A model generated the notes under the pieces. That model did not search any database, was not told where the DNA came from, and saw nothing but the letters and a program-made list of their open reading frames with translations. The translations under genes were made by a program, and so were the position numbers. From contig CAXXXD010000004.1 in assembly GCA_963663385.2 (NCBI GenBank), forward strand, positions 1,120,001-1,184,000: a stretch of DNA of 64,000 nt, written 5' to 3'. The DNA is from Oceanispirochaeta sp. GTDB lineage: Bacteria > Spirochaetota > Spirochaetia > DSM-2461. Shown here piece by piece: positions 52,435 to 64,000 of the stretch (its first letter is position 1; each line of letters begins with the position of its first letter).

Positions 52435-52445
52435 GTGTTTAACAT

Positions 52446-52576
52446 GATTCTTCGGGGCAGGGTGAGCTTGTTAATAAGCAATTCCCTACCGGCGGTTAAA
52501 GCCCGCGAGCCTGTTGTAAACAGGTTGAACTGGTGAGATTCCAGTGCCGACAGTATAGTCTGGACGAGAGAAGAGT
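52446..52576 (+). ncRNA. FMN riboswitch (RFN element)
   Basis: GGGGCAGGGTGA..AATTCCCTACCGGCGGT..AGCCCGCGAG..CTGGTGAGATTCCAGTGCCGACAGTATAGTCTGGA.GAGAGAAG upstream of ribD. Confidence 0.95.
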
Positions 52577-52596
52577 AACGTATAAGTGGATTACCA

Positions 52597-52634
52597 TGCC
52601 CCGGACAGGTCCAATCTGTTCGGGGTATTTTTTT
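52597..52634 (+). terminator. Riboswitch expression-platform terminator
   Basis: TGCCCCGGACAGG...CTGTTCGGGGTA followed by a T-run. Confidence 0.7.
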
Positions 52635-52737
52635 GTTTGAAAGGATTTGGTGTCGCAGGGCATCAGATACTTTCTGATAGAAAATCCGCCCACCCGTCTT
52701 TTTTTCAATCACAGGCCCCGGAAAAGGGGCGTTATTC

Positions 52738-53844
52738 ATGCAAACAGATGAACTTTTTATGAGGAAAGCTCTGGATCGGGCCCGTCTGGGAGAGGGGAAG
52801 GTGCTTCCCAATCCCATGGTGGGGGCTCTGATTGTCCGGGACGGCAGAATCCTTGGACAGGGGCACCATGCCTGTTACGGCGGGATCCATGCCGAAGCGG
52901 CGGCCCTGCGGGACTGCCGGGAAGATCCGAAGGGGGCGACCCTCTATGTTACCCTTGAACCCTGCTGTCACAGGGGTGAGGGAAAACATAATCCGCCCTG
53001 TACGGATGCCATCCTGAAAGCGCAGATTTCCCGGGTTGTTATCAGCCGTCTGGATCCCAATCCCGCTGTTTCCGGCAGGGGCGCCGGTATTCTGAGGCAG
53101 AAAGGCGTTGAGGTTCACTGCGGGATTCTGGAAAAAGAGTCGGCCCGGCTGAACCGGGTGTATGAAACCCTGATCTGCACCGACAGACCGTACGTCCATC
53201 TGAAAGCGGCCCTGACTCTGGACGGATTTCTGGCTGCCGCCGACGGCAGTTCCAGATGGATCAGCGGGAGCGAATCCCGGGAGAAGGTGATGGCCTTCCG
53301 TTCCCGGTGCGACGGCATCCTGACCGGACGGGGCACCCTCTATGCGGATCTGCCGTCCCTGACGGTCCGTCATCCCGATAACAGCCACCGGAATGACCCG
53401 CAGCCTGCAAGGATTTTTCTCAGTACGAAAGGGCATATCCCCGGGGACTGGGAGAAGCCGGGCGGTCCTGTTCTTGTCTATCACGACAGGAGTGTTTCTC
53501 AGCCGGGTTGTCCGGAGTCTTTTCAATTCACCCCTGTCCCGGCAGGTGAAAACGGCCTTTCTCTTCCGGATGTCCTTTCCGACCTTCGCAGGCGGGGGAT
53601 ACGGCAGCTGCTGGTCGAGGGGGGATCCCGGGTGTACGGATCCTTTATCCGGAGCGGGCTCTGGGACAGACTGACCCTTTTCATCGCCCCTGTTCTTCTG
53701 GGCGAGGGAATCCCCTTTTCCGACGGACTGGATATCGGTTCCATAACTTCAAAACTGCATCTGAAAGACGTAAGCTCCGTCCCCAGCGGGGATGACATTA
53801 TGATCGACGGATACCGGGAGGCGCTGTCGTGTTTACCGGCCTGA
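52738..53844 (+). CDS. ribD: Riboflavin deaminase/reductase
   Basis: PNPMVGA, HAE, TLEPCCH..PPC, LVEGG. Confidence 0.95.
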   Translation: MQTDELFMRKALDRARLGEGKVLPNPMVGALIVRDGRILGQGHHACYGGIHAEAAALRDCREDPKGATLYVTLEPCCHRGEGKHNPPCTDAILKAQISRVVISRLDPNPAVSGRGAGILRQKGVEVHCGILEKESARLNRVYETLICTDRPYVHLKAALTLDGFLAAADGSSRWISGSESREKVMAFRSRCDGILTGRGTLYADLPSLTVRHPDNSHRNDPQPARIFLSTKGHIPGDWEKPGGPVLVYHDRSVSQPGCPESFQFTPVPAGENGLSLPDVLSDLRRRGIRQLLVEGGSRVYGSFIRSGLWDRLTLFIAPVLLGEGIPFSDGLDIGSITSKLHLKDVSSVPSGDDIMIDGYREALSCLPA

Positions 53845-54470
53845 TTCAATCTGTGGGTGTCATAAGGGGAACCCGGATAATCCCGGGCGGTTTTCTTCTG
53901 AATATACGCCACGGTTTCCCTGCCGCTCCGGAAAAAGGGGCCTCTGTTGCCGTAAACGGCGTCTGCCTGACCGTAACGGAGGACCGGCAGGGGATTTTCT
54001 CTGCGGAGTGTTACTGGGAAACCGCCCAGAAGACCAATCTGGACCGCCTGAAACCGGGAATGAATGTCAATCTGGAAATGTCGCTCCGGGCGGACGGGGC
54101 CCTGGACGGTCACCTTGTGCAGGGACATGTCTCTTCGGTTGTACAGGTGATACGGACGCTTAAACGGGGCAGGGGGCTGGAGCTGACGGTCTCTTATCCG
54201 CCGGAACACGCTGACGCTCTGATACCCGAAGGATCGGTTGCCCTGGACGGGGTAAGTCTGACTATAGCCGGTTTAGGGGCGGGGGAGCTGTCGGTTCAGC
54301 TGATAGGGGAAACCCTGGAGCAGACCACCCTGAAGGAGCGCCGCCCGGGGGACCTGGTCAATATGGAAACGGATTTTCTTCTGAGGCGGCGCCGCCTGCC
54401 CGGACGGAGTGAGAAGAACAAAGAGCAAACAATAACAATGGGCCGTCTGGCCGAATGGGGGTATGTATGA
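53829..54470 (+). CDS. ribE: Riboflavin synthase (alpha chain)
   Basis: MFTGLI, SVAVNGVCLT, GHLVQGHV, GSVALDGVSLT. Confidence 0.93.
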   Translation: MFTGLIQSVGVIRGTRIIPGGFLLNIRHGFPAAPEKGASVAVNGVCLTVTEDRQGIFSAECYWETAQKTNLDRLKPGMNVNLEMSLRADGALDGHLVQGHVSSVVQVIRTLKRGRGLELTVSYPPEHADALIPEGSVALDGVSLTIAGLGAGELSVQLIGETLEQTTLKERRPGDLVNMETDFLLRRRRLPGRSEKNKEQTITMGRLAEWGYV

Positions 54471-55699
54471 AAAAGACAAGACTGACTGTAGAAGAAGCGA
54501 TTGAGATTATAGGATCGGGGGGCATGATTATCATGACCGACGATGAAGACCGGGAAAATGAAGGGGATCTGGTAGGGGCGGCCCGTTTTGCCGATCCCGG
54601 TATGATCAATTTTATGGCTTCCCATGCGAAGGGACTGATCTGCTGCGCCATTGAAAAGAAGCTGTGCGAAAGGGCCGGTCTGGTTCCGCTTGATAGCAAT
54701 GACGGCCCGGATGCCATCCACGGGACGAAATTCTGCACGCCCATTGATGCGATCAGGGGCTGTGAAACAGGGATTTCCGCCTACGACCGGTCCACTACCC
54801 TCAAACGGCTGGTGGCGGCCGACTGTCACCCCGATGATTTTGCCCGGCCCGGCCATATGTTTCCCTGTATGGAAGCCGACGGCGGCCTTAAGGTACGTCA
54901 GGGGCATACGGAGGCTACGGTGGAACTCTGCCGTCAGGCCGGACTGGAAGGGGCCGCCGCCATTTGCGAAATTATGGACAACGACGGGACGATGGCCCGC
55001 TGGGACCGTCTGAACGAGATGGCCGCCGAGTGGAACCTGGGAATCCTGACCATTGAGGACCTGATGCTCTGGCTGGAAAAGAAGAAAAAAGAGGTGGAGA
55101 GCCTGCAGGATATACCTGTCAGACTCCCCACTGAGCGGGGGGATTTTCATATGGAATTCCTGACTCCCCGGGAGGGGGAACATAGTACGGGGGGGGATCA
55201 TATCTGTCTGGTCAGAAAGAGTGATTTTTTTGAAACCAATCCGGAGGGACCCCTTGTGCGAATCCATTCGGAGTGTCTGACGGGGGATCTTTTTGCTTCC
55301 AGCCGCTGTGACTGCGGAAAGCAGCTGGCGGTTTCTCAGCAGATGATCGAAGAAGAGGGCGAGGGCTACCTGATCTACCTCCGTCAGGAGGGCCGGGGAA
55401 TCGGGCTGAGAGCCAAAGCCGCCGCCTACCACCTGCAGGATGCCGGTCTGGATACTCTGGACGCCAATCTGAAACTGGGCTATGAGGCAGATGCCAGGAG
55501 CTACCGTTCCGCAGCGGCGTACCTGAAAGCGAAGGGGCTGAAAAATATCCGCCTTCTGACCAATAATCCCGATAAAATCCGCCAGCTGGAGAAAGAGGGC
55601 TTAAGGGTTACACGGGTTCCCCTGCTGATAGAAGCGGGGAAAGAGAACAGCCGCTATATAGAAACAAAACAGAACAGAATGGGCCATCTTTCGGCTTAA
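54467..55699 (+). CDS. ribBA: DHBP synthase / GTP cyclohydrolase II
   Basis: [46 protein letters not shown]. Confidence 0.95.
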
Positions 55700-55725
55700 T
55701 CAGAGATAAACAGGAGAATAAACGA

Positions 55726-56202
55726 ATGGACAATTTTAACAATGTAAAAGAAGGATACCTGAATGGAGAGGGGCTGAAGTTCACCCTGGTTGTGAGCCGG
55801 TTCAATGATCTGATTACCTCCCGGCTGGAAGAGGGCGCCATGGACTGCCTTGTCCGGCACGGAGTCAAAAAGGAGGATCTGAAGGTTATCCGGGTGCCCG
55901 GCGCTTTTGAAATCCCCCTGGCTGCGGCCTGGGCGGCAGATGAAAAGACCGATGGCGTTGTCTGTCTGGGCGCGGTTATCCGGGGAGGAACCCCTCACTT
56001 CGATTATGTTAGTGCAGAGGTTTCCAAAGGGGTGGCTTCGGTCTCCCTGGAGAAGAAACTGCCCATGGGATTCGGCGTACTGACCTGCGATACCATGGAA
56101 CAGGCTCTGGAAAGGGCCGGAGTCAAGGCGGGCAATAAGGGCTGGGAAGCCGCTGTTACCGCCCTGGAGATGGCGGCGCTGAGACGGGAAATGTCTGCCT
56201 GA
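55726..56202 (+). CDS. ribH: Lumazine synthase
   Basis: [31 protein letters not shown]. Confidence 0.95.
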
Positions 56203-56951: not shown

Positions 56952-57305
56952 ATGAAGAGCCTCTACCATATTGTCGACAGATCAATTTACAAAAAAGCTT
57001 CAGAGACGGGATTCTTCAGTCCGGACAGCGTTGCCGGCTAAGGTTCTATCCATTGCTCCTATGCGGAACAGGTCTGCCGGATTGCCAACTGGCTTTATAA
57101 AGATGAAACCGATTTGATTTTGCTGGAAATAGACCGGGACAGGACCGGCTGTAAAGTGGCAGACGAAGATCTTTGTGAAATGAATGAGTTGTTTCCCCAT
57201 ATATACGGCAGTCTGCCGAACAGTGCGGTGATTGCCCGGCATGAATTCAAAGCCGGTTCCGACGGGATATTCAGACTGCCTGGTTCTGTCGGGGTATCCT
57301 GCTGA
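56952..57305 (+). pseudogene. DUF952 family gene with an in-frame stop
   Basis: MKSLYHI..PDSVAG*GSIHCS..LLEID..LFPHIYG; in-frame TAA at 57039-57041 where the family has EGFIH. Confidence 0.75.
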
Positions 57306-57631
57306 GTTGTTCTAAATTATTCTAACAGTTACAAAATAATCTCATTATTAGTTGATATCGGTTGAGCGGGTGATGTCTGCTTGATTTATCTATGGCAGGG
57401 GTAATCCTGTTTTTGCCGTGGGAAGGGAGGCTTTACTGCGGTTTTTTGGTTTTAGCTAACTAAAGTTAGTATATATTTTACTTTTAAGAAGAGGGGCTTT
57501 GGTATAAAATGAAACTGGTTTTACGGATGCGCTGATGGGTTTCAGTGATTCGTCGATTATTTATAGGTTATGTAGACATTGTTGCAGGGTATTTTGTTTT
57601 AATGGGAATTACCTTGTTCAAGAGATAATAA

Positions 57632-57638
57632 GTTATAT
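57632..57638 (+). other. Cassette 5' boundary G|TTATAT (attI-like or upstream core site)
   Basis: GTTATAT is the exact complement of the R'' ATATAAC closing the same cassette; no attC left arm found upstream. Confidence 0.55.
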
Positions 57639-57681
57639 TCGCAGAATGGTTTAATATTTATTTATTATAAATGGAGAAACA

Positions 57682-58554
57682 ATGTTAATGTCTTTAGAAT
57701 TAACAATTTTAGCTGATACAAATTCAAAAATTGGAGAAGAATATAAAACAAATGGAGTTTCTTATTTAATCGAAATATATAATGATGAAAATTCAATAGA
57801 AATACTTTTTGATACAGGGTATGATGGAAAGCAATTAATTAATATTGCTGGAAAACTCAATAAAGATTTATCAAAAGTTAATAATATAATCTTAAGTCAT
57901 GGCCATTTCGATCATACTAATGGACTCTCAACTGTTCTTCATTCAAATAAAAATAAGCCGAAAATTTACTGCAATGAAAATATTTTTTACAAAAAAATAC
58001 TAAATTATAATACTCCTGATGCACGGGATATTGGTATTACTGCAAATAATGAGATTAAATTCATACAGAACAATACAAACATTCAATATATTAAAGAGAA
58101 TATGGAAATATTTCCAGGAGTCTGGACCATATCAAATATTCCCAGAAATATTGAAACAAATACAATTTCAGGAAATTTAACGAATGTATATAGGGAAAAT
58201 CCTGATGGAGATTATATCACGGATCCTATAGATGAAGATTCATCTCTACTCATAGAGCTAAATAAAGAAGAATTATTTCTTATCATTGGTTGCGGGCATA
58301 GCGGTATTAAAAATACTATCAAACACATTAATGACAATTTCAACGGAAAAAAAATAATCGGGATTGTAGGAGGATTACAACTTCATGATAAAGATATTAA
58401 GCAAATTGAAGATGTATATTCGTACATTAATAAGTTAAATTTAGAATATTTCTGTCCTATTCATAGCACTGGAGAAACAGCAATTAGTTTATTTAAAGAA
58501 AATATGGGAAAAGAATTTATAAGTGGTGGGGTTGGAACTGTAATATCAATATAA
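57682..58554 (+). CDS. MBL-fold metallo-hydrolase (COG1237-like) carried as an integron gene cassette
   Basis: LFDTG, LSHGHFDHTNG, GCGHSG, CPIHSTG; very AT-rich; stop 7 nt before attC R''. Confidence 0.85.
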   Translation: MLMSLELTILADTNSKIGEEYKTNGVSYLIEIYNDENSIEILFDTGYDGKQLINIAGKLNKDLSKVNNIILSHGHFDHTNGLSTVLHSNKNKPKIYCNENIFYKKILNYNTPDARDIGITANNEIKFIQNNTNIQYIKENMEIFPGVWTISNIPRNIETNTISGNLTNVYRENPDGDYITDPIDEDSSLLIELNKEELFLIIGCGHSGIKNTIKHINDNFNGKKIIGIVGGLQLHDKDIKQIEDVYSYINKLNLEYFCPIHSTGETAISLFKENMGKEFISGGVGTVISI

Positions 58555-58567
58555 AATCGGAATATAA

Positions 58568-60556
58568 ATCGGGTAGCCGGAGGCTTTTAACCTCCAGCCC
58601 CCACACCACCCTGCATGCGGGTCCGCACAGGGCGGTTCACTCCATGGAGCAAACGAAACTATAATTTGATCATGTGTAGCCCTGGATTTTACACCAGAGG
58701 GCCTTAATATTGATCAATCCTTGCTCTTCCAACCATTTATTGGACATAGCGGCATTGGTTGCATAGCCTTTTGACAGATGCCAGTAGGACTTACTACTTG
58801 CTCCTGTCATAATGGCAAAATCTTTCGGAATACCCAGCTCCATCAGTTTCCTGACTTTTGTTCTGGGGTAACGCCACTGTTTCCAGTAGCACATACGGAT
58901 TCTTCTTCTCAGCCATTCATCAATTGATTGTAGAGGTCTGTAATATTGGGAAATACCATAATAGTTCATCCACCCCCGGATATACTCGTTAAGTTTCCGG
59001 AATCGATATTCCATTGATACCCCCCAAGACCGTCTTGTCAAATGCTTTAACTGATATTGAAACTCCCGAAAGGATGATTCAGTCCATCGGATTTTCTTAC
59101 CCTTGAAAGTGAATCCCAGAAAACTGCATTCGGAGATTTTACACACCTTGCTTTTCTTCTGGTTTACAACCAATTTTAACCTGCGACTGAGATAATCACT
59201 TATTTCAGTCAATATAGCTTTTCCATCACACAGGCGTTTTGATACAATTAATGCATCATCTGCGTAACGTGCAAAGCACAGGTTTCTCCGTTCCAACTCC
59301 TTATCGAAATTATCAAGAAGGATATTGGAAAGTAGAGGTGATAACGGGCCTCCTTGAGGAGTCCCGATTTCAGTAGGGATTTTAATCCCATCCTTGTCCA
59401 TAATACCGGCTCTCAGGTAGCGGCCAATCAATTTCAGGACTGATTTGTCCCGGACTTTCTTAGCCACACAATGCATCAGAATATCGTGATTTACCGTATC
59501 AAAGAACTTTTCCAAGTCCAGATCAACTGCATACTTGTATCCCGATTTAACATAGGTATTTACCTGTCGTACTGCTCCGTGAGCCGATCTTCCCGGCCTG
59601 AATCCAAAACTGCTTTCCGAAAAATCCGAATCGAATAGAGGATTCAAAACCTGTGAAATAGCCTGTTGGATAACCCTGTCTAAAATAGTGGGAATACCCA
59701 GCATTCGCATACCTCCGGATCTCTTGGGGATTTCCACCCTGAGCACCGGAGAGGGTACATAGTACCCCAAAAGCAAAGCTTGCTTGATTTTACTCCATCT
59801 TCTGCGTAGATATTCCGGAAATTTCTCAATAGTCATGCCATTGACTCCCGGACTGCCGCCATTGCGTTTGACCTGTTTCCAGGCCTTACGCATGTTTTCA
59901 GATGATAAAATCAAATCCATCATAGAATCGTTCAAGGCTGGTTTCTCCATAATTCGCCAAAAGTTATTTCGGCCAGTGCTAAAATTGTTCCTTTGAGAAC
60001 CATAAGGCTCCTCCTTGTGAAATGTTCAGGCCTTCACCGTGAACCGGACATTACTCCGGGCGTTGGTTACTATGCCTTCTGCTGACTTCTGCCTGCTAAT
60101 CAACGAGATTGCTCCCGTTGATGCTATACCGTGCTTTTAAACCTGTGACGACTTATTTGTACTCAAGATAATCTTGCTCATTTCCAGAGTGTCACCCTCT
60201 GAAAAGCCGGGGATTGGTTTTCCGGTTCCCTACCGGATTCTCAGTTTAAAAGAACACATCACCGCCCCGCAGACAGATCTCCCCGAATAAGACTGTACAC
60301 TGTCCCCGGACAACCCTGTGATTTACCCTATTCCATACCCACGGGGCATCGTCATCATTGGCTGACTCGCCTCTGGAACTGAGCCTTCTATCACATTCTT
60401 GTACATGGGCTCCCGGTTTTGCATTCCGGCTTCCTCCAGACATTCCCTCGCGGAAATGCCCTTGCCTTCAGCTAACAGTTGGTATAGCATGTTCACTATA
60501 CGTGGGCACCTGTAGAGGACTTTCACCTCATTAGCGTACAGCCATGTCGGGCGTAC
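58568..60556 (-). mobile_element. Group IIC (attC-targeting) intron
   Basis: 5' GTACGCCC; short DV GAACCGCCCTGTGCGGACCCGCATGCAGGGTGGTGT (CGC triad); DVI ending ACCCGAT; antisense insertion in attC R''. Confidence 0.9.
58670..59950 (-). CDS. ltrA: Group II intron reverse transcriptase/maturase, no endonuclease domain
   Basis: LGIPTILDRVIQQA, SFGFRPGRS, DLEKFFD, GTPQGGPLSP, RYADD, FLGF, IRGWMNYY. Confidence 0.95.
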   Translation of the reverse strand: MEKPALNDSMMDLILSSENMRKAWKQVKRNGGSPGVNGMTIEKFPEYLRRRWSKIKQALLLGYYVPSPVLRVEIPKRSGGMRMLGIPTILDRVIQQAISQVLNPLFDSDFSESSFGFRPGRSAHGAVRQVNTYVKSGYKYAVDLDLEKFFDTVNHDILMHCVAKKVRDKSVLKLIGRYLRAGIMDKDGIKIPTEIGTPQGGPLSPLLSNILLDNFDKELERRNLCFARYADDALIVSKRLCDGKAILTEISDYLSRRLKLVVNQKKSKVCKISECSFLGFTFKGKKIRWTESSFREFQYQLKHLTRRSWGVSMEYRFRKLNEYIRGWMNYYGISQYYRPLQSIDEWLRRRIRMCYWKQWRYPRTKVRKLMELGIPKDFAIMTGASSKSYWHLSKGYATNAAMSNKWLEEQGLINIKALWCKIQGYT

Positions 60557-60652
60557 CAATCAAATGCAACTGTCAACTTTTTTGTCATAGTTTTTGAGTG
60601 CTCAAAAACTACGCCAACCCTACGGGACAAAGTTGCAGCTGATTTGGGCGTT

Positions 60653-62443
60653 GAGACTGTAGAAAAAGTCACCTTTTCTACAGCTCTCAGCCAAAACATG
60701 GTAAAATTCTATAAAAGGGAGGTTTTCAATAATGGCCAGATATAAAGAGTATTCTTATACCCAGACAATGATGATCCCCGTAAGCTTTGAAAAACAGATT
60801 TTACCAGGAACATTCGAATATACATTATGCCATCTGATAGACAATCAAATAGATATGTCCGCATTTGAAAACCATTACGAAAATGATGAAACAGGAGCAC
60901 CGGCTTATGACCCAGCAATCCTTTTAAAAATAGTCCTTTACGCCTATTCAAAAGGCATAAACAGCAGCAGAAAAATTGAACAGTTATGCCGGGAGAATAT
61001 CGTCTGTATGGCACTGGCTGCCGATTCCAGACCCCACTTTACAACCATTGCCGATTTTATCTCTTCCCGTCATAAAGAGTGCCAAACCCTATTTACCATG
61101 ATACTCTCTGTTTGCTACACACAGGGACTGATCGGCAAAAACATGTTTGCCATTGACGGCTGCAAGATCTCCTCAAACTGTTCAAAGGAATGGAGCGGAA
61201 CCAAAGCGGAACTATTTGCCAAAACAAAGAAAATAGAGAAATCCGTAAACTATCTGATTGAAAAACACAAGAATACGGATGCCAGTTGGGAAGATAAAGA
61301 GCAGCGTAAAAAAGAAAAGAAAGCCATCAAAAAGCTAAAGGCTAAAACAGATAAAATCTACAAATGGCTGGATACCCATTATGACCGGTTCGGTAGTCAG
61401 GATCAGCCCATCAAAAGCAATATTGTGGATAACGAAAGCGCCAAAATGTCTACCGGACACGGTGTTATACAGGGTTACAACGGCATTGCCGCCGTAGATG
61501 ACAAACATCAGCTGATCATATTTGCCGACACCTACGGCGATGCAAACGAATCAGGACACCTTACAGAGATTCTGGAAGGAATTGATAAGAGCTGTAAAAA
61601 CTCCCATATAGATGATGAGATCTACAAGCATGTGACGGTCACAGCGGATACAGGATTCCATAATAAAAAGAACATGCAAATGATCAGCGAGAAGAAGATA
61701 GATGCCTATATCCCGGACAATCAGTTCAGGAAAAGGCATGTTGCCTTCCAGGATGCCGGAAAATACAAAAAGAAAGTCGCCAACTGGAAACCGGAAAAAG
61801 GAAAGCACTATTTTCGTCCGGAAGACTTTTATATGGATACGGCAAACAACCAACTGATCTGTCCTGCCGGACATGCCATGTGGCTGAAATCCCCCAACTT
61901 CAGAAGCAATGACGGTCGGTATACCGGAAAATCTTATCAAGGGCATATACGCAATTGTCGCGACTGTAAACTTCGTTCAAAATGTATAAGAAAGGAAACG
62001 ACAAAAGCCCGTCAGGTTGCCATACTAAAGGAAGTGCCGGAAAGAAAAGGGAGCAATCCCATGGCCGATATGAAGGAGAAAATTGATACGCCCTATGGAC
62101 GATCAGTTTATGCAAAACGGATGAGTACGGTAGAACCTGTATTCGGACATATTGCCGGAATGAAAAAGCTGAATCGCTTTACTTTACGGGGTACGGAAAA
62201 GGTCCGGACACAGTGGTTGTTGTACTGTATGGTGCATAATATCGGGAAAATCCAGCAGTATAGTGCGTAGGAATACGGAAAAGTGCTAAAGAATGGGTAT
62301 AGCGTTGGATAAAACCAATTGTAGTTGAATATAGCCGGTTTTAATCGGATTGAATATTGAAATTAATGAGATGATTGATTTTTCGGAATGAGTGCTTTCA
62401 AGGGAGCCTTGAAAAAACCCAGTTTGAGTTTTTCTACAGTCTC
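60653..62443 (+). mobile_element. IS1182-family insertion sequence (1791 bp)
   Basis: 19-bp IRs GAGACTGTAGAAAAAGTCA / TGAGTTTTTCTACAGTCTC (1 mismatch), GTT on both flanks. Confidence 0.9.
60732..62270 (+). CDS. IS1182 family DDE transposase
   Basis: GAPAYDP..YAY..SSRKIE, AIDG, QGYN, ADTGF, CPAG, Y.KR..VEPVFG. Confidence 0.9.
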   Translation: MARYKEYSYTQTMMIPVSFEKQILPGTFEYTLCHLIDNQIDMSAFENHYENDETGAPAYDPAILLKIVLYAYSKGINSSRKIEQLCRENIVCMALAADSRPHFTTIADFISSRHKECQTLFTMILSVCYTQGLIGKNMFAIDGCKISSNCSKEWSGTKAELFAKTKKIEKSVNYLIEKHKNTDASWEDKEQRKKEKKAIKKLKAKTDKIYKWLDTHYDRFGSQDQPIKSNIVDNESAKMSTGHGVIQGYNGIAAVDDKHQLIIFADTYGDANESGHLTEILEGIDKSCKNSHIDDEIYKHVTVTADTGFHNKKNMQMISEKKIDAYIPDNQFRKRHVAFQDAGKYKKKVANWKPEKGKHYFRPEDFYMDTANNQLICPAGHAMWLKSPNFRSNDGRYTGKSYQGHIRNCRDCKLRSKCIRKETTKARQVAILKEVPERKGSNPMADMKEKIDTPYGRSVYAKRMSTVEPVFGHIAGMKKLNRFTLRGTEKVRTQWLLYCMVHNIGKIQQYSA

Positions 62444-62452
62444 GTTATATTG

Positions 62453-62815
62453 TGGTGTGCCCCACTAAAAGTGGACAACTCTAACTATGCACTTAAAGCC
62501 ATTGCTTCCTCGAATTCCGCTGGACTCTGATAACCGATAGAAGAATGCTTTCGTTTACGGTTATAGAATACCTCGATATATTCGAAAATGCCAGCACGAG
62601 CTTGTTCACTGTTCTGATAATTGCTTGGGTAGATCAGTTCAACTTTAGATCTTGAAAAGAATGACTCCATAGGAGCATTATCCCAACAGTTTCCTTTTCG
62701 GCTCATACTCAAAGAACACCCCCATGATTGAGCAAAATCTATATATTTTTGTGATCGATATTGTACTCCTCTGTCAGAGTGTAGAATTGGACCTTCACCT
62801 TTTTTAATCTTTCTC
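62453..62815 (-). mobile_element. IS3-family right end with 3' part of the transposase (stop at 62485), interrupted by IS66
   Basis: HSDRGVQY, SMSRKGNCWDNAPMESFF, YIEVFYNRKRKHSSIGYQSP; IR GTCCACTTTTAGTGGGGCACACCA. Confidence 0.85.
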
Positions 62816-64000
62816 GTAAGCGGTAATTCTTCCCACATTGACAGCATTTTAGGACTGATGGATCAGATTGCAATATCTTCAGCAGTTAAGTTATAGGGAA
62901 GTAATTTTTCATAATCACTCTGTTTTTCACAGCAGGGCAATTCCCGGAAGATAAAGTACAAGTAAGCATAAACTGGAAGATTGTTCATCTTCGCAGATTC
63001 AACGAGACTGTACAGAATTGCCGATGATTCAGCACCTTTCGGGCTTCCGGCAAAAAGCCAGTTTTTTCTCCCGATTACGAAGGGTCTGATTGCATTTTCA
63101 GCGCTATTGTTCGAAGGAGTCAAAACAGGATTTTTCAGATATAGAACCAACTGCTCCCAGTTGCTCAATGTATACTTCATCGCCTTACCGAACTCTAAAG
63201 AAGGAGGTACTTGAGGATAAAGCTTCGTCAGTTTTTTCTGTAACTTATCTAGTATCGGTTCTGCTCTATTTTGTCGCTGTTTATGAAACCCTTTTAGCGA
63301 ATAATTATCCCGTAATGATTCCAGTTCAAACAGATCCTTTATCAGGTCGAGAATTTGCTTTGCTTCTGCATCTTTTTTCTTGGTTGATTCCCAATATTGG
63401 AAGAACTTTCTTCTGGCATGGGCCCAGCATAAGACATGCTTTATATCTCCATCAACTTTTTTTCGGGCAGTATGGTAGGCCTCAAAATCATCAGTTTGAA
63501 CCCAGCCAGAGTAATTTTCCAAGAAATCCAACGGAATTGCATGGGATCGGCCTTGCTCATACTGAAATATGACACATTTTTTATCGGGATCTCCTCTGAG
63601 AAAGACCCACATCCATGATTTATCTGAAGCTTTTCGTTTCGGTTCCTTTAGAACCTGAACTCTCGTCTCATCGGCATTAATAATGGAACCGGATTTAATG
63701 TTTTCTTTCAGCAAATCATATAGAGGCTTACATGCCGTTGCCGATTTTATCGTAAGATTGCTCAATGTCGCCCGGGGGATCGGTATGCCTATCTGGTTTA
63801 ACCGTTTTGATTGCCTGTAGAAAGGAAGAGCGAACTCAAACTTTTCGCTTATACTCCAAGCGAGCAGGCTTTCATCGGCAATACTGCCCGCGACCAGATG
63901 CTTTGCTCCTTCTGCGGTCTGTACAGCAGCTTCATCAAGAGTCGTCCCTTCACAATTCTTGCAGGAGTACTTTTTTCTACGTTCCTGAATAACAACGACT
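62816..64000 (-). mobile_element. IS66-family element (right end; continues beyond window)
   Basis: Terminal GTAAGCG at 62816, where IS3 coding similarity stops. Confidence 0.8.
62863..64000 (-). CDS. tnpC: IS66 transposase TnpC, 5' end outside window
   Basis: Frame open to the window edge: KYSCKNC..LPFYRQ..ADET..CWAHARRKF..NNSAENAIRPFVIGRKNWLF. Confidence 0.92.
   Translation of the reverse strand, partial: VVVIQERRKKYSCKNCEGTTLDEAAVQTAEGAKHLVAGSIADESLLAWSISEKFEFALPFYRQSKRLNQIGIPIPRATLSNLTIKSATACKPLYDLLKENIKSGSIINADETRVQVLKEPKRKASDKSWMWVFLRGDPDKKCVIFQYEQGRSHAIPLDFLENYSGWVQTDDFEAYHTARKKVDGDIKHVLCWAHARRKFFQYWESTKKKDAEAKQILDLIKDLFELESLRDNYSLKGFHKQRQNRAEPILDKLQKKLTKLYPQVPPSLEFGKAMKYTLSNWEQLVLYLKNPVLTPSNNSAENAIRPFVIGRKNWLFAGSPKGAESSAILYSLVESAKMNNLPVYAYLYFIFRELPCCEKQSDYEKLLPYNLTAEDIAI

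Follow-up and report, generated by a model that had tools for sequence, protein, structure and literature searches.

The question raised by this locus is why one integron attC should carry two different mobile elements, one in each of its R boxes, and whether their meeting reflects a shared mechanism or chance. The window is the whole stretch of 64,000 nt that was analysed (G000:C4:1120001-1184000, G000 being the genome under study and C1-C4 its contigs). The doubly interrupted site within it is real and is an ordinary coincidence of two parasites; the best account as a whole, held at a probability of about 70%, is that two attC specialists hit one attC independently, namely a GTT-targeting insertion sequence (IS) of the IS1182 family and then a group IIC-attC intron.

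The cassette concerned is the first behind a solo attI-like site (57610-57638, + strand) without an adjacent integrase gene. The GTTATAT at 57632, which the initial annotation had taken as the matching start of the cassette, is present and is more precisely the crossover of this attI-like site, with the exchange point between G and TT at 57632/57633. The 25-bp attI core is identical at four places in the genome (the window, C2:1687449, C3:727493 and C1:37709), identity ending after the crossover; one copy adjoins the genome's only integron integrase gene, an intact intI at C2:1687729-1688955 encoding 408 aa (TIGR02249 above cut-off), and three head arrays without intI. These three arrays are like CALIN elements in having no neighbouring intI, however each starts with a copy of the attI core matching that beside the one intact intI. 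The other three arrays of the genome open with a gene-less cassette, which in the window array stands second; the different first cassette of the window array suggests use of attI in trans, and its place ahead of the gene-less one suggests that this integration was recent. The cassette gene (57682-58554, + strand) encodes a 290-aa MBL-fold hydrolase (Pfam Lactamase_B) at 27% GC, in agreement with the AT-rich MBL-fold hydrolase first read from the sequence; its nearest structures are 7DCK, 3H3E (Tm1679) and 2P4Z. Identity as a class B metallo-beta-lactamase was considered and rejected (NF012229, 24 bits against a cut-off of 100). The C-terminal motifs of the hydrolase have Q and S in place of the H and C of the nearest structure, and judging from these motifs a metal ligand may have been lost.

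Beyond the IS, the second copy of GTT together with ATAT (62444-62450, + strand) forms the start of the next, gene-less cassette, which matches the gene-less cassettes heading the other three arrays and resumes at C4:1188325. The interruption is an IS3-family element (62451-64000, − strand; NF033516, NF033517) that lies a few bases into this cassette, is split by an IS66 and runs past the window; its other end is near C4:1188299-1188325, one copy was found, and its ends are approximate. Just upstream of the attI region a DUF952 gene (56953-57305) is interrupted by a stop codon, and at 52444-56202 there is an FMN riboswitch with four downstream ORFs, an ordinary arrangement; we take these ORFs to be the riboflavin genes ribD, ribE, ribBA and ribH.

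The intron and the IS flank 96 bases of attC core (60557-60652, + strand) comprising the last C of R'', L'', the variable stem, L' and the GTT of R', as delimited by the fold, by a covariance hit at 60557-60650 and by an intact allele at C1:30106-30211; the first six bases of R'' (ATATAA, 58562-58567, + strand) are separated from its last C by the intron. Removal of 58568-60556 and 60653-62446, as the initial annotation had proposed, indeed gives the right empty site, a 106-nt attC that ends in ATATAAC and GTTATAT, forms a hairpin and is identical to the uninterrupted allele at 99/106 positions; both element junctions are fixed by this allele. The second interval is thus sound as an excision, however the IS proper ends at 62443 and the interval takes in the second GTT copy. 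In four of the ten listed sequencing runs, all of them contigs, no junction bridging the entire intron or IS is seen, a neutral result because contigs can reveal presence but not absence. The bottom strand of the rebuilt site is predicted to fold at −25.7 kcal/mol, with an R box, an L box, an unpaired spacer and two bulges. Both expected extrahelical bases are found, at canonical positions 16 and 23 (60566 and 60573, + strand, placed by the fold), though on the bottom strand they are C and A instead of G and T. Function is described for A/C-type sites, attC-dfrA1 among them, with excision of a natural A/C site (PMC3053210), and a G-to-C change at the first bulge is described as causing only a 2.7-fold loss (PMC2727003). 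The R boxes are complementary as claimed and include the conserved AAC/GTT; the distal letters depart from strict RYYY/RRRY, and since the distal four bases of R' are part of the next cassette, the match of these four bases to R'' does not belong to the hydrolase cassette alone.

A covariance model distinct from that of IntegronFinder was built from 28 attC sites away from the IS, picked by our own scan and including four from this genome; it scores the intact allele at 38 bits and the interrupted site as it stands at 23 bits (E 0.013), the sole match in the window, contrary to the expectation that attC scans would miss the site. A genome-wide structural attC scan under loose rules was dropped due to too many false matches. 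In the predicted folds the R box is absent when the intron is present, and AAC/GTT is still paired when only the IS is there; because of this loss of the R box the cassette should be frozen by the intron, which fits what had been proposed from the sequence.

The intron (58568-60556, − strand) is 1989 nt long and lies at TTG/T on the attC bottom strand; it is matched by Rfam RF00029, RF01998 and RF02001, with domain V/VI at 58568-58637 plus pieces of domain I. Its junctions on the top strand read ATATAA-intron-CAATC, R'' being cut between AA and C. It encodes a 426-aa reverse transcriptase (RT)/maturase (58670-59950, − strand; TIGR04416 above cut-off) with an intact YADD, in which Pfam finds RVT_1 and GIIM only and no endonuclease domain; the protein is 50-52% identical to those of class 1 integron introns, which are among the closest plasmid proteins. 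The window intron differs at 2 positions from five C2 copies and at 9 from the C3 copy. Among the eight intact intron 5' ends in the genome CAA is next in every case, and six are at attC left arms, so inserted in R'' on the bottom strand and opposite to the cassettes; the remaining two are within IS66 and after a terminator-like hairpin. At the 3' end, AA precedes the intron in 12/14 cases. An identical copy at C2:97525-99513 is found behind a terminator-like hairpin, not an attC.

Introns that target attC are already known (PMC3001079, PMC4424553), and the target consensus published for the IIC-attC group is TTGT/T (PMC7923331), which all eight copies here lack, the target being TTG/T in 8/8; as the source gives the consensus for the majority, TTG/T is considered a variant and membership is not excluded by it. 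TTG/T lies one base nearer the hairpin, and EBS1 is shifted to match: CAAU (60357-60360, − strand), complementary to the 5' exon end ATTG, aligns with ACAA, the EBS1 of two introns in class 1 integrons that have TTGT at the end of the 5' exon. This matching shift confirms the intron boundary independently. Compared with IIC-attC introns such as S.ma.I2 and those of class 1 integrons, the class C RT without endonuclease, the insertion in R'' on the bottom strand and against the direction of the cassettes, and the off-target insertion after a terminator-like hairpin are the same (PMC3001079, PMC7923331), as are the first and last bases shared with the two class 1 integron introns; the difference is TTG/T with EBS1 CAAU in place of TTGT/T with ACAA. 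The intron is assigned to the known IIC-attC type with a one-base-shifted target.

The IS (60653-62443, + strand) has perfect 14-bp terminal inverted repeats between GTT direct repeats at 60650-60652 and 62444-62446, and an open frame for a 512-aa transposase (60732-62270, + strand) with the Pfam domains DUF772 and DDE_Tnp_1_6, assigned to the IS1182 family by NF033551 at 286 bits against a cut-off of 270. The position of the IS is the R' crossover, with GTT duplicated. Throughout the genome GTTAT is next to all eight right ends, and GTT stands before all six left ends in our own count, five of these at attC; together with the 6/8 intact intron 5' ends, this upholds the view of attC as a landing pad for both elements. 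A full copy of the IS at C3:287670-289460 lies between GTT repeats outside the arrays with no attC upstream, and an internally deleted, MITE-like IS of ~440 bp is found between GTT repeats at another attC (C1:26341-26778). The left end of the IS (window 60653-60688) folds onto an internal copy of its own repeat, likewise in L001 and L012; this predicted fold might protect the transposase against transcription that enters from outside. Records labelled Oceanispirochaeta and Spirochaetaceae contain transposase relatives with 73-92% identity, so that the host is probably a free-living spirochaete.

The specialisation of the IS is better seen in its wider group. Relatives were taken from genomes (12 loci), plasmids (3), metagenomes (the best 80 of 483) and a 401-genome phylum sample, and IS ends were located from element-internal letters only; the three plasmid records, found with the transposase at E 1e-40, are large replicons of marine bacteria. 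Both ends are present in 82 of the 117 sampled loci with at least 38% identity, a count that includes two loci of the genome under study and others with a genome in common; 72 are flanked by GTT on both sides, 4 by AAC on both sides and 6 otherwise. A strict test of attC geometry plus fold is passed by 34/83 IS flanks of at least 110 bases, against a background of ~1% (11/1084 other GTTs of the same flanks, 2/830 shuffles and 4/1000 host GTTs); either this test or the covariance model is passed by 37/67 flanks in L001-L096. The flanks that fail (49/83 in the strict test, 30/67 in both) include many that resemble variant attC by eye, and no attC hallmark is seen in about six related flanks (L005, L012, L020, L043, L089 and L093) and in one copy here (C3:287670). 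The flank letters also match attC, with a pyrimidine before GTT in 99% and A after it in 76%. Distant IS1182 elements (25-34% identity) have other flanks (CTAG or other repeats) and no match to the covariance model. A geometry-free test for the foot of a hairpin gave 37/61 against backgrounds of 99/500 and 46/357 and is a weak discriminator. The main result, which the initial annotation did not point to, is that this element is one of a broad group specialised on GTT at the attC crossover; it forms part of the best explanation and is considered as probable as that explanation.

Polarity looks constant within lineages of the IS and flips between them, and is not universal: all G401 copies examined are reversed, and reversed orientation appears on three separate branches (the G401 copies, L025/L028 and L100/L102). 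The IS tree has 109 rows, is midpoint-rooted and leaves out loci with <300 aligned residues; in it the GTT group stands apart from four outgroup rows at a support of only 0.73. On the basal branch the genomes have no intI match, and GTT or AAC stands beside hairpins to which the attC model gives no score. Some of these basal relatives (L100-L106, L109 and L124-L126) have long hairpins closed by TAAC/GTTA, with a bulge in the opposite arm. Among 401 genomes sampled from the class of G401, intI is found in 25/28 IS carriers and 128/373 non-carriers, from our own assignment of 46 matches in which kin are non-independent, G442 is in the background and one genome is unscored for the IS. In the same sample intI is present in 11/18 carriers of other IS1182; as these are also enriched in intI, part of the association is due to element-rich or better-assembled genomes. 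Within the phylum of the window (401-genome sample), detectable intI is present in only 4/18 IS carriers; the link between the IS and integrons is strong and incomplete.

It is unlikely, though not negligibly so, that the IS moves as a circle with a GTT junction which IntI, or the transposase by triplet matching, recombines with attC between G and TT, the apparent duplication being the crossover core and the orientation being inherited from the donor site. Such a circle yields exactly GTT-IS-GTT and would account for orientation that is fixed within lineages and flipped between the three reversed branches, for tandem copies with one common triplet (L007, L019, L032 and L092) and for the intI association; however, 14/18 carriers in the window's phylum are without detectable intI, related IS1182 are flanked on either side by CTAG, as expected from a staggered DDE cut, and the transposase is intact. 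The GTT flanks without attC hallmark noted above would suit a transposase that reads only about Y-GTT-A, with copies accumulating at attC since they do no harm there; this is considered rather improbable, as GTT is very common, yet attC is found at 5/6 left ends and, by automated tests, in 41-55% of related flanks against ~1% background, and each lineage keeps one polarity with respect to the hairpin.

The same end state would arise if the IS inserted at attI and a new cassette entering at that GTT pushed it behind an attC; here the IS would have occupied the solo attI until the hydrolase cassette came. In the other three arrays the gene-less cassette stands immediately after attI, and in the window it is this cassette that lies behind the IS; a few flanks without a hairpin might also be attI; nevertheless the IS is at 0/4 attI sites of the genome, and in L039 and L064, with the integrase gene just upstream, an attC lies between integrase and IS, making this route quite doubtful. 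Very improbable is a functional coupling of intron and IS, in which an outward promoter of the intron drives the transposase or one element recruits the other. Outward promoters are described on IIC-attC introns (PMC3001079), the transposase here faces that way, and there are both a weak promoter-like match at 60145-60172 and a second fused intron-IS remnant (C2:1652850-1653332); against this, doubles are not in excess, tblastn with the intron RT in related IS loci finds the window's own only, and the 17 promoter matches are barely above the 11.3 ± 3.4 of shuffles.

That independent hits suffice is indicated by the inventory of the four arrays, which by our own count, two weak sites and remnants included, holds ~27 attC, of which about 11 contain the intron and 7 the IS; 2 doubly hit attC are seen and 2.9 are expected under independence. 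The double hit, presented at first as remarkable, is thus no more frequent than about 2.9 by chance, and its reading as a special structure was rejected. The other of the two, besides the window site, is the fused remnant on C2, in which an intron 3' end runs into right-hand IS sequence; it was probably a doubly hit attC that has lost its middle by deletion. A different pair is found in Lysobacterales (L007:4441-5821), where an attC has a reversed IS at R' and an IS110-family element at the place of R''. As to order, 34-141 of ~1790 nt (2-8%) differ between IS copies, against 0-9 of 1989 nt (<0.5%) between intron copies; the greater divergence of the IS copies suggests that the IS came first, a comparison that dates the families and not this insertion.

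Under the preferred reading of two independent attC specialists, an ordinary cassette would have integrated at the solo attI, presumably through the genome's single IntI acting in trans. The IS probably followed: the DDE transposase of this IS1182 sub-group would recognise GTT at the base of the attC hairpin and cut with a 3-base stagger, giving the GTT duplication that is observed at this position. IntI is described as cutting between the G and TT of R' (PMC2727003), so that with GTT duplicated the IS, landing just downstream of this point, would lie inside the next cassette; in the upstream attC the AAC/GTT triplet would stay paired, GTTGAGA now serving as R', and the next cassette would formally be headed by the IS, with putative hitchhiking. 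The intron would have come later, entering TTG/T of the bottom strand by reverse splicing under the guidance of the hairpin and of EBS1 CAAU; the junction and pairing are observed, and the route is that of published work. By breaking the AAC triplet the intron is predicted from the fold to make the site unusable for IntI, and the hydrolase and next cassettes would be locked together with separate excision of the latter blocked. The meeting of the two hits would be accidental, both elements having overrun the genome.

To our knowledge, attC-targeting IS are known only from the RNA-guided IS1111 group. That group, IS1111-attC (ISKpn4 and ISPst6, of the IS110/IS1111 family), is described as specialised on attC (PMC11187229), and in excerpts of a 2025 integron paper only IS1111-type elements are cited as attC-targeting IS (PMC12444791). 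IS1111-attC elements have a DEDD transposase, sub-terminal repeats and a seekRNA, whereas the window IS has a DDE transposase, true terminal repeats and, at the crossover in R', a GTT repeat of 3 bp; an Rfam scan found no guide RNA in it. Within its own family, IS1272/TnSha1 and other IS1182 members are described as targeting DNA stem-loops, with IS1272 deleting part or all of the hairpin, making no duplication and having no sequence consensus (PMC5678879, PMC4923244); in contrast the window IS group leaves the hairpin whole and duplicates a fixed GTT, with constant polarity within lineages. As target habits vary within the IS1182 family, this departure from the IS1272 habit marks a variant. 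No paper on an attC-targeting IS1182 was found among the titles and abstracts covered, and entries of ISfinder or TnCentral may already record this habit.

For annotation, what looks like a 1.8-kb 'transposase cassette' in an array is often no cassette, and neighbouring cassettes are merged when an attC is split by an intron; the double hit itself shows only how arrays decay. The widespread IS1182 sub-family may tentatively be seen as a third, site-preserving attC parasite that inserts at the crossover triplet, rebuilds a usable R', heads and shuffles with the next cassette and has a polarity passed on within each lineage, perhaps via a circle junction that carries GTT; the basal branch would then mark an unrecognised cassette system with attC-like sites. 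If the targeting is true, it would provide a testable case of target choice by structure plus triplet and a marker for divergent cassette arrays, and a DDE transposase acting on the integrase's own crossover triplet with the site preserved would be a new route of integron parasitism.
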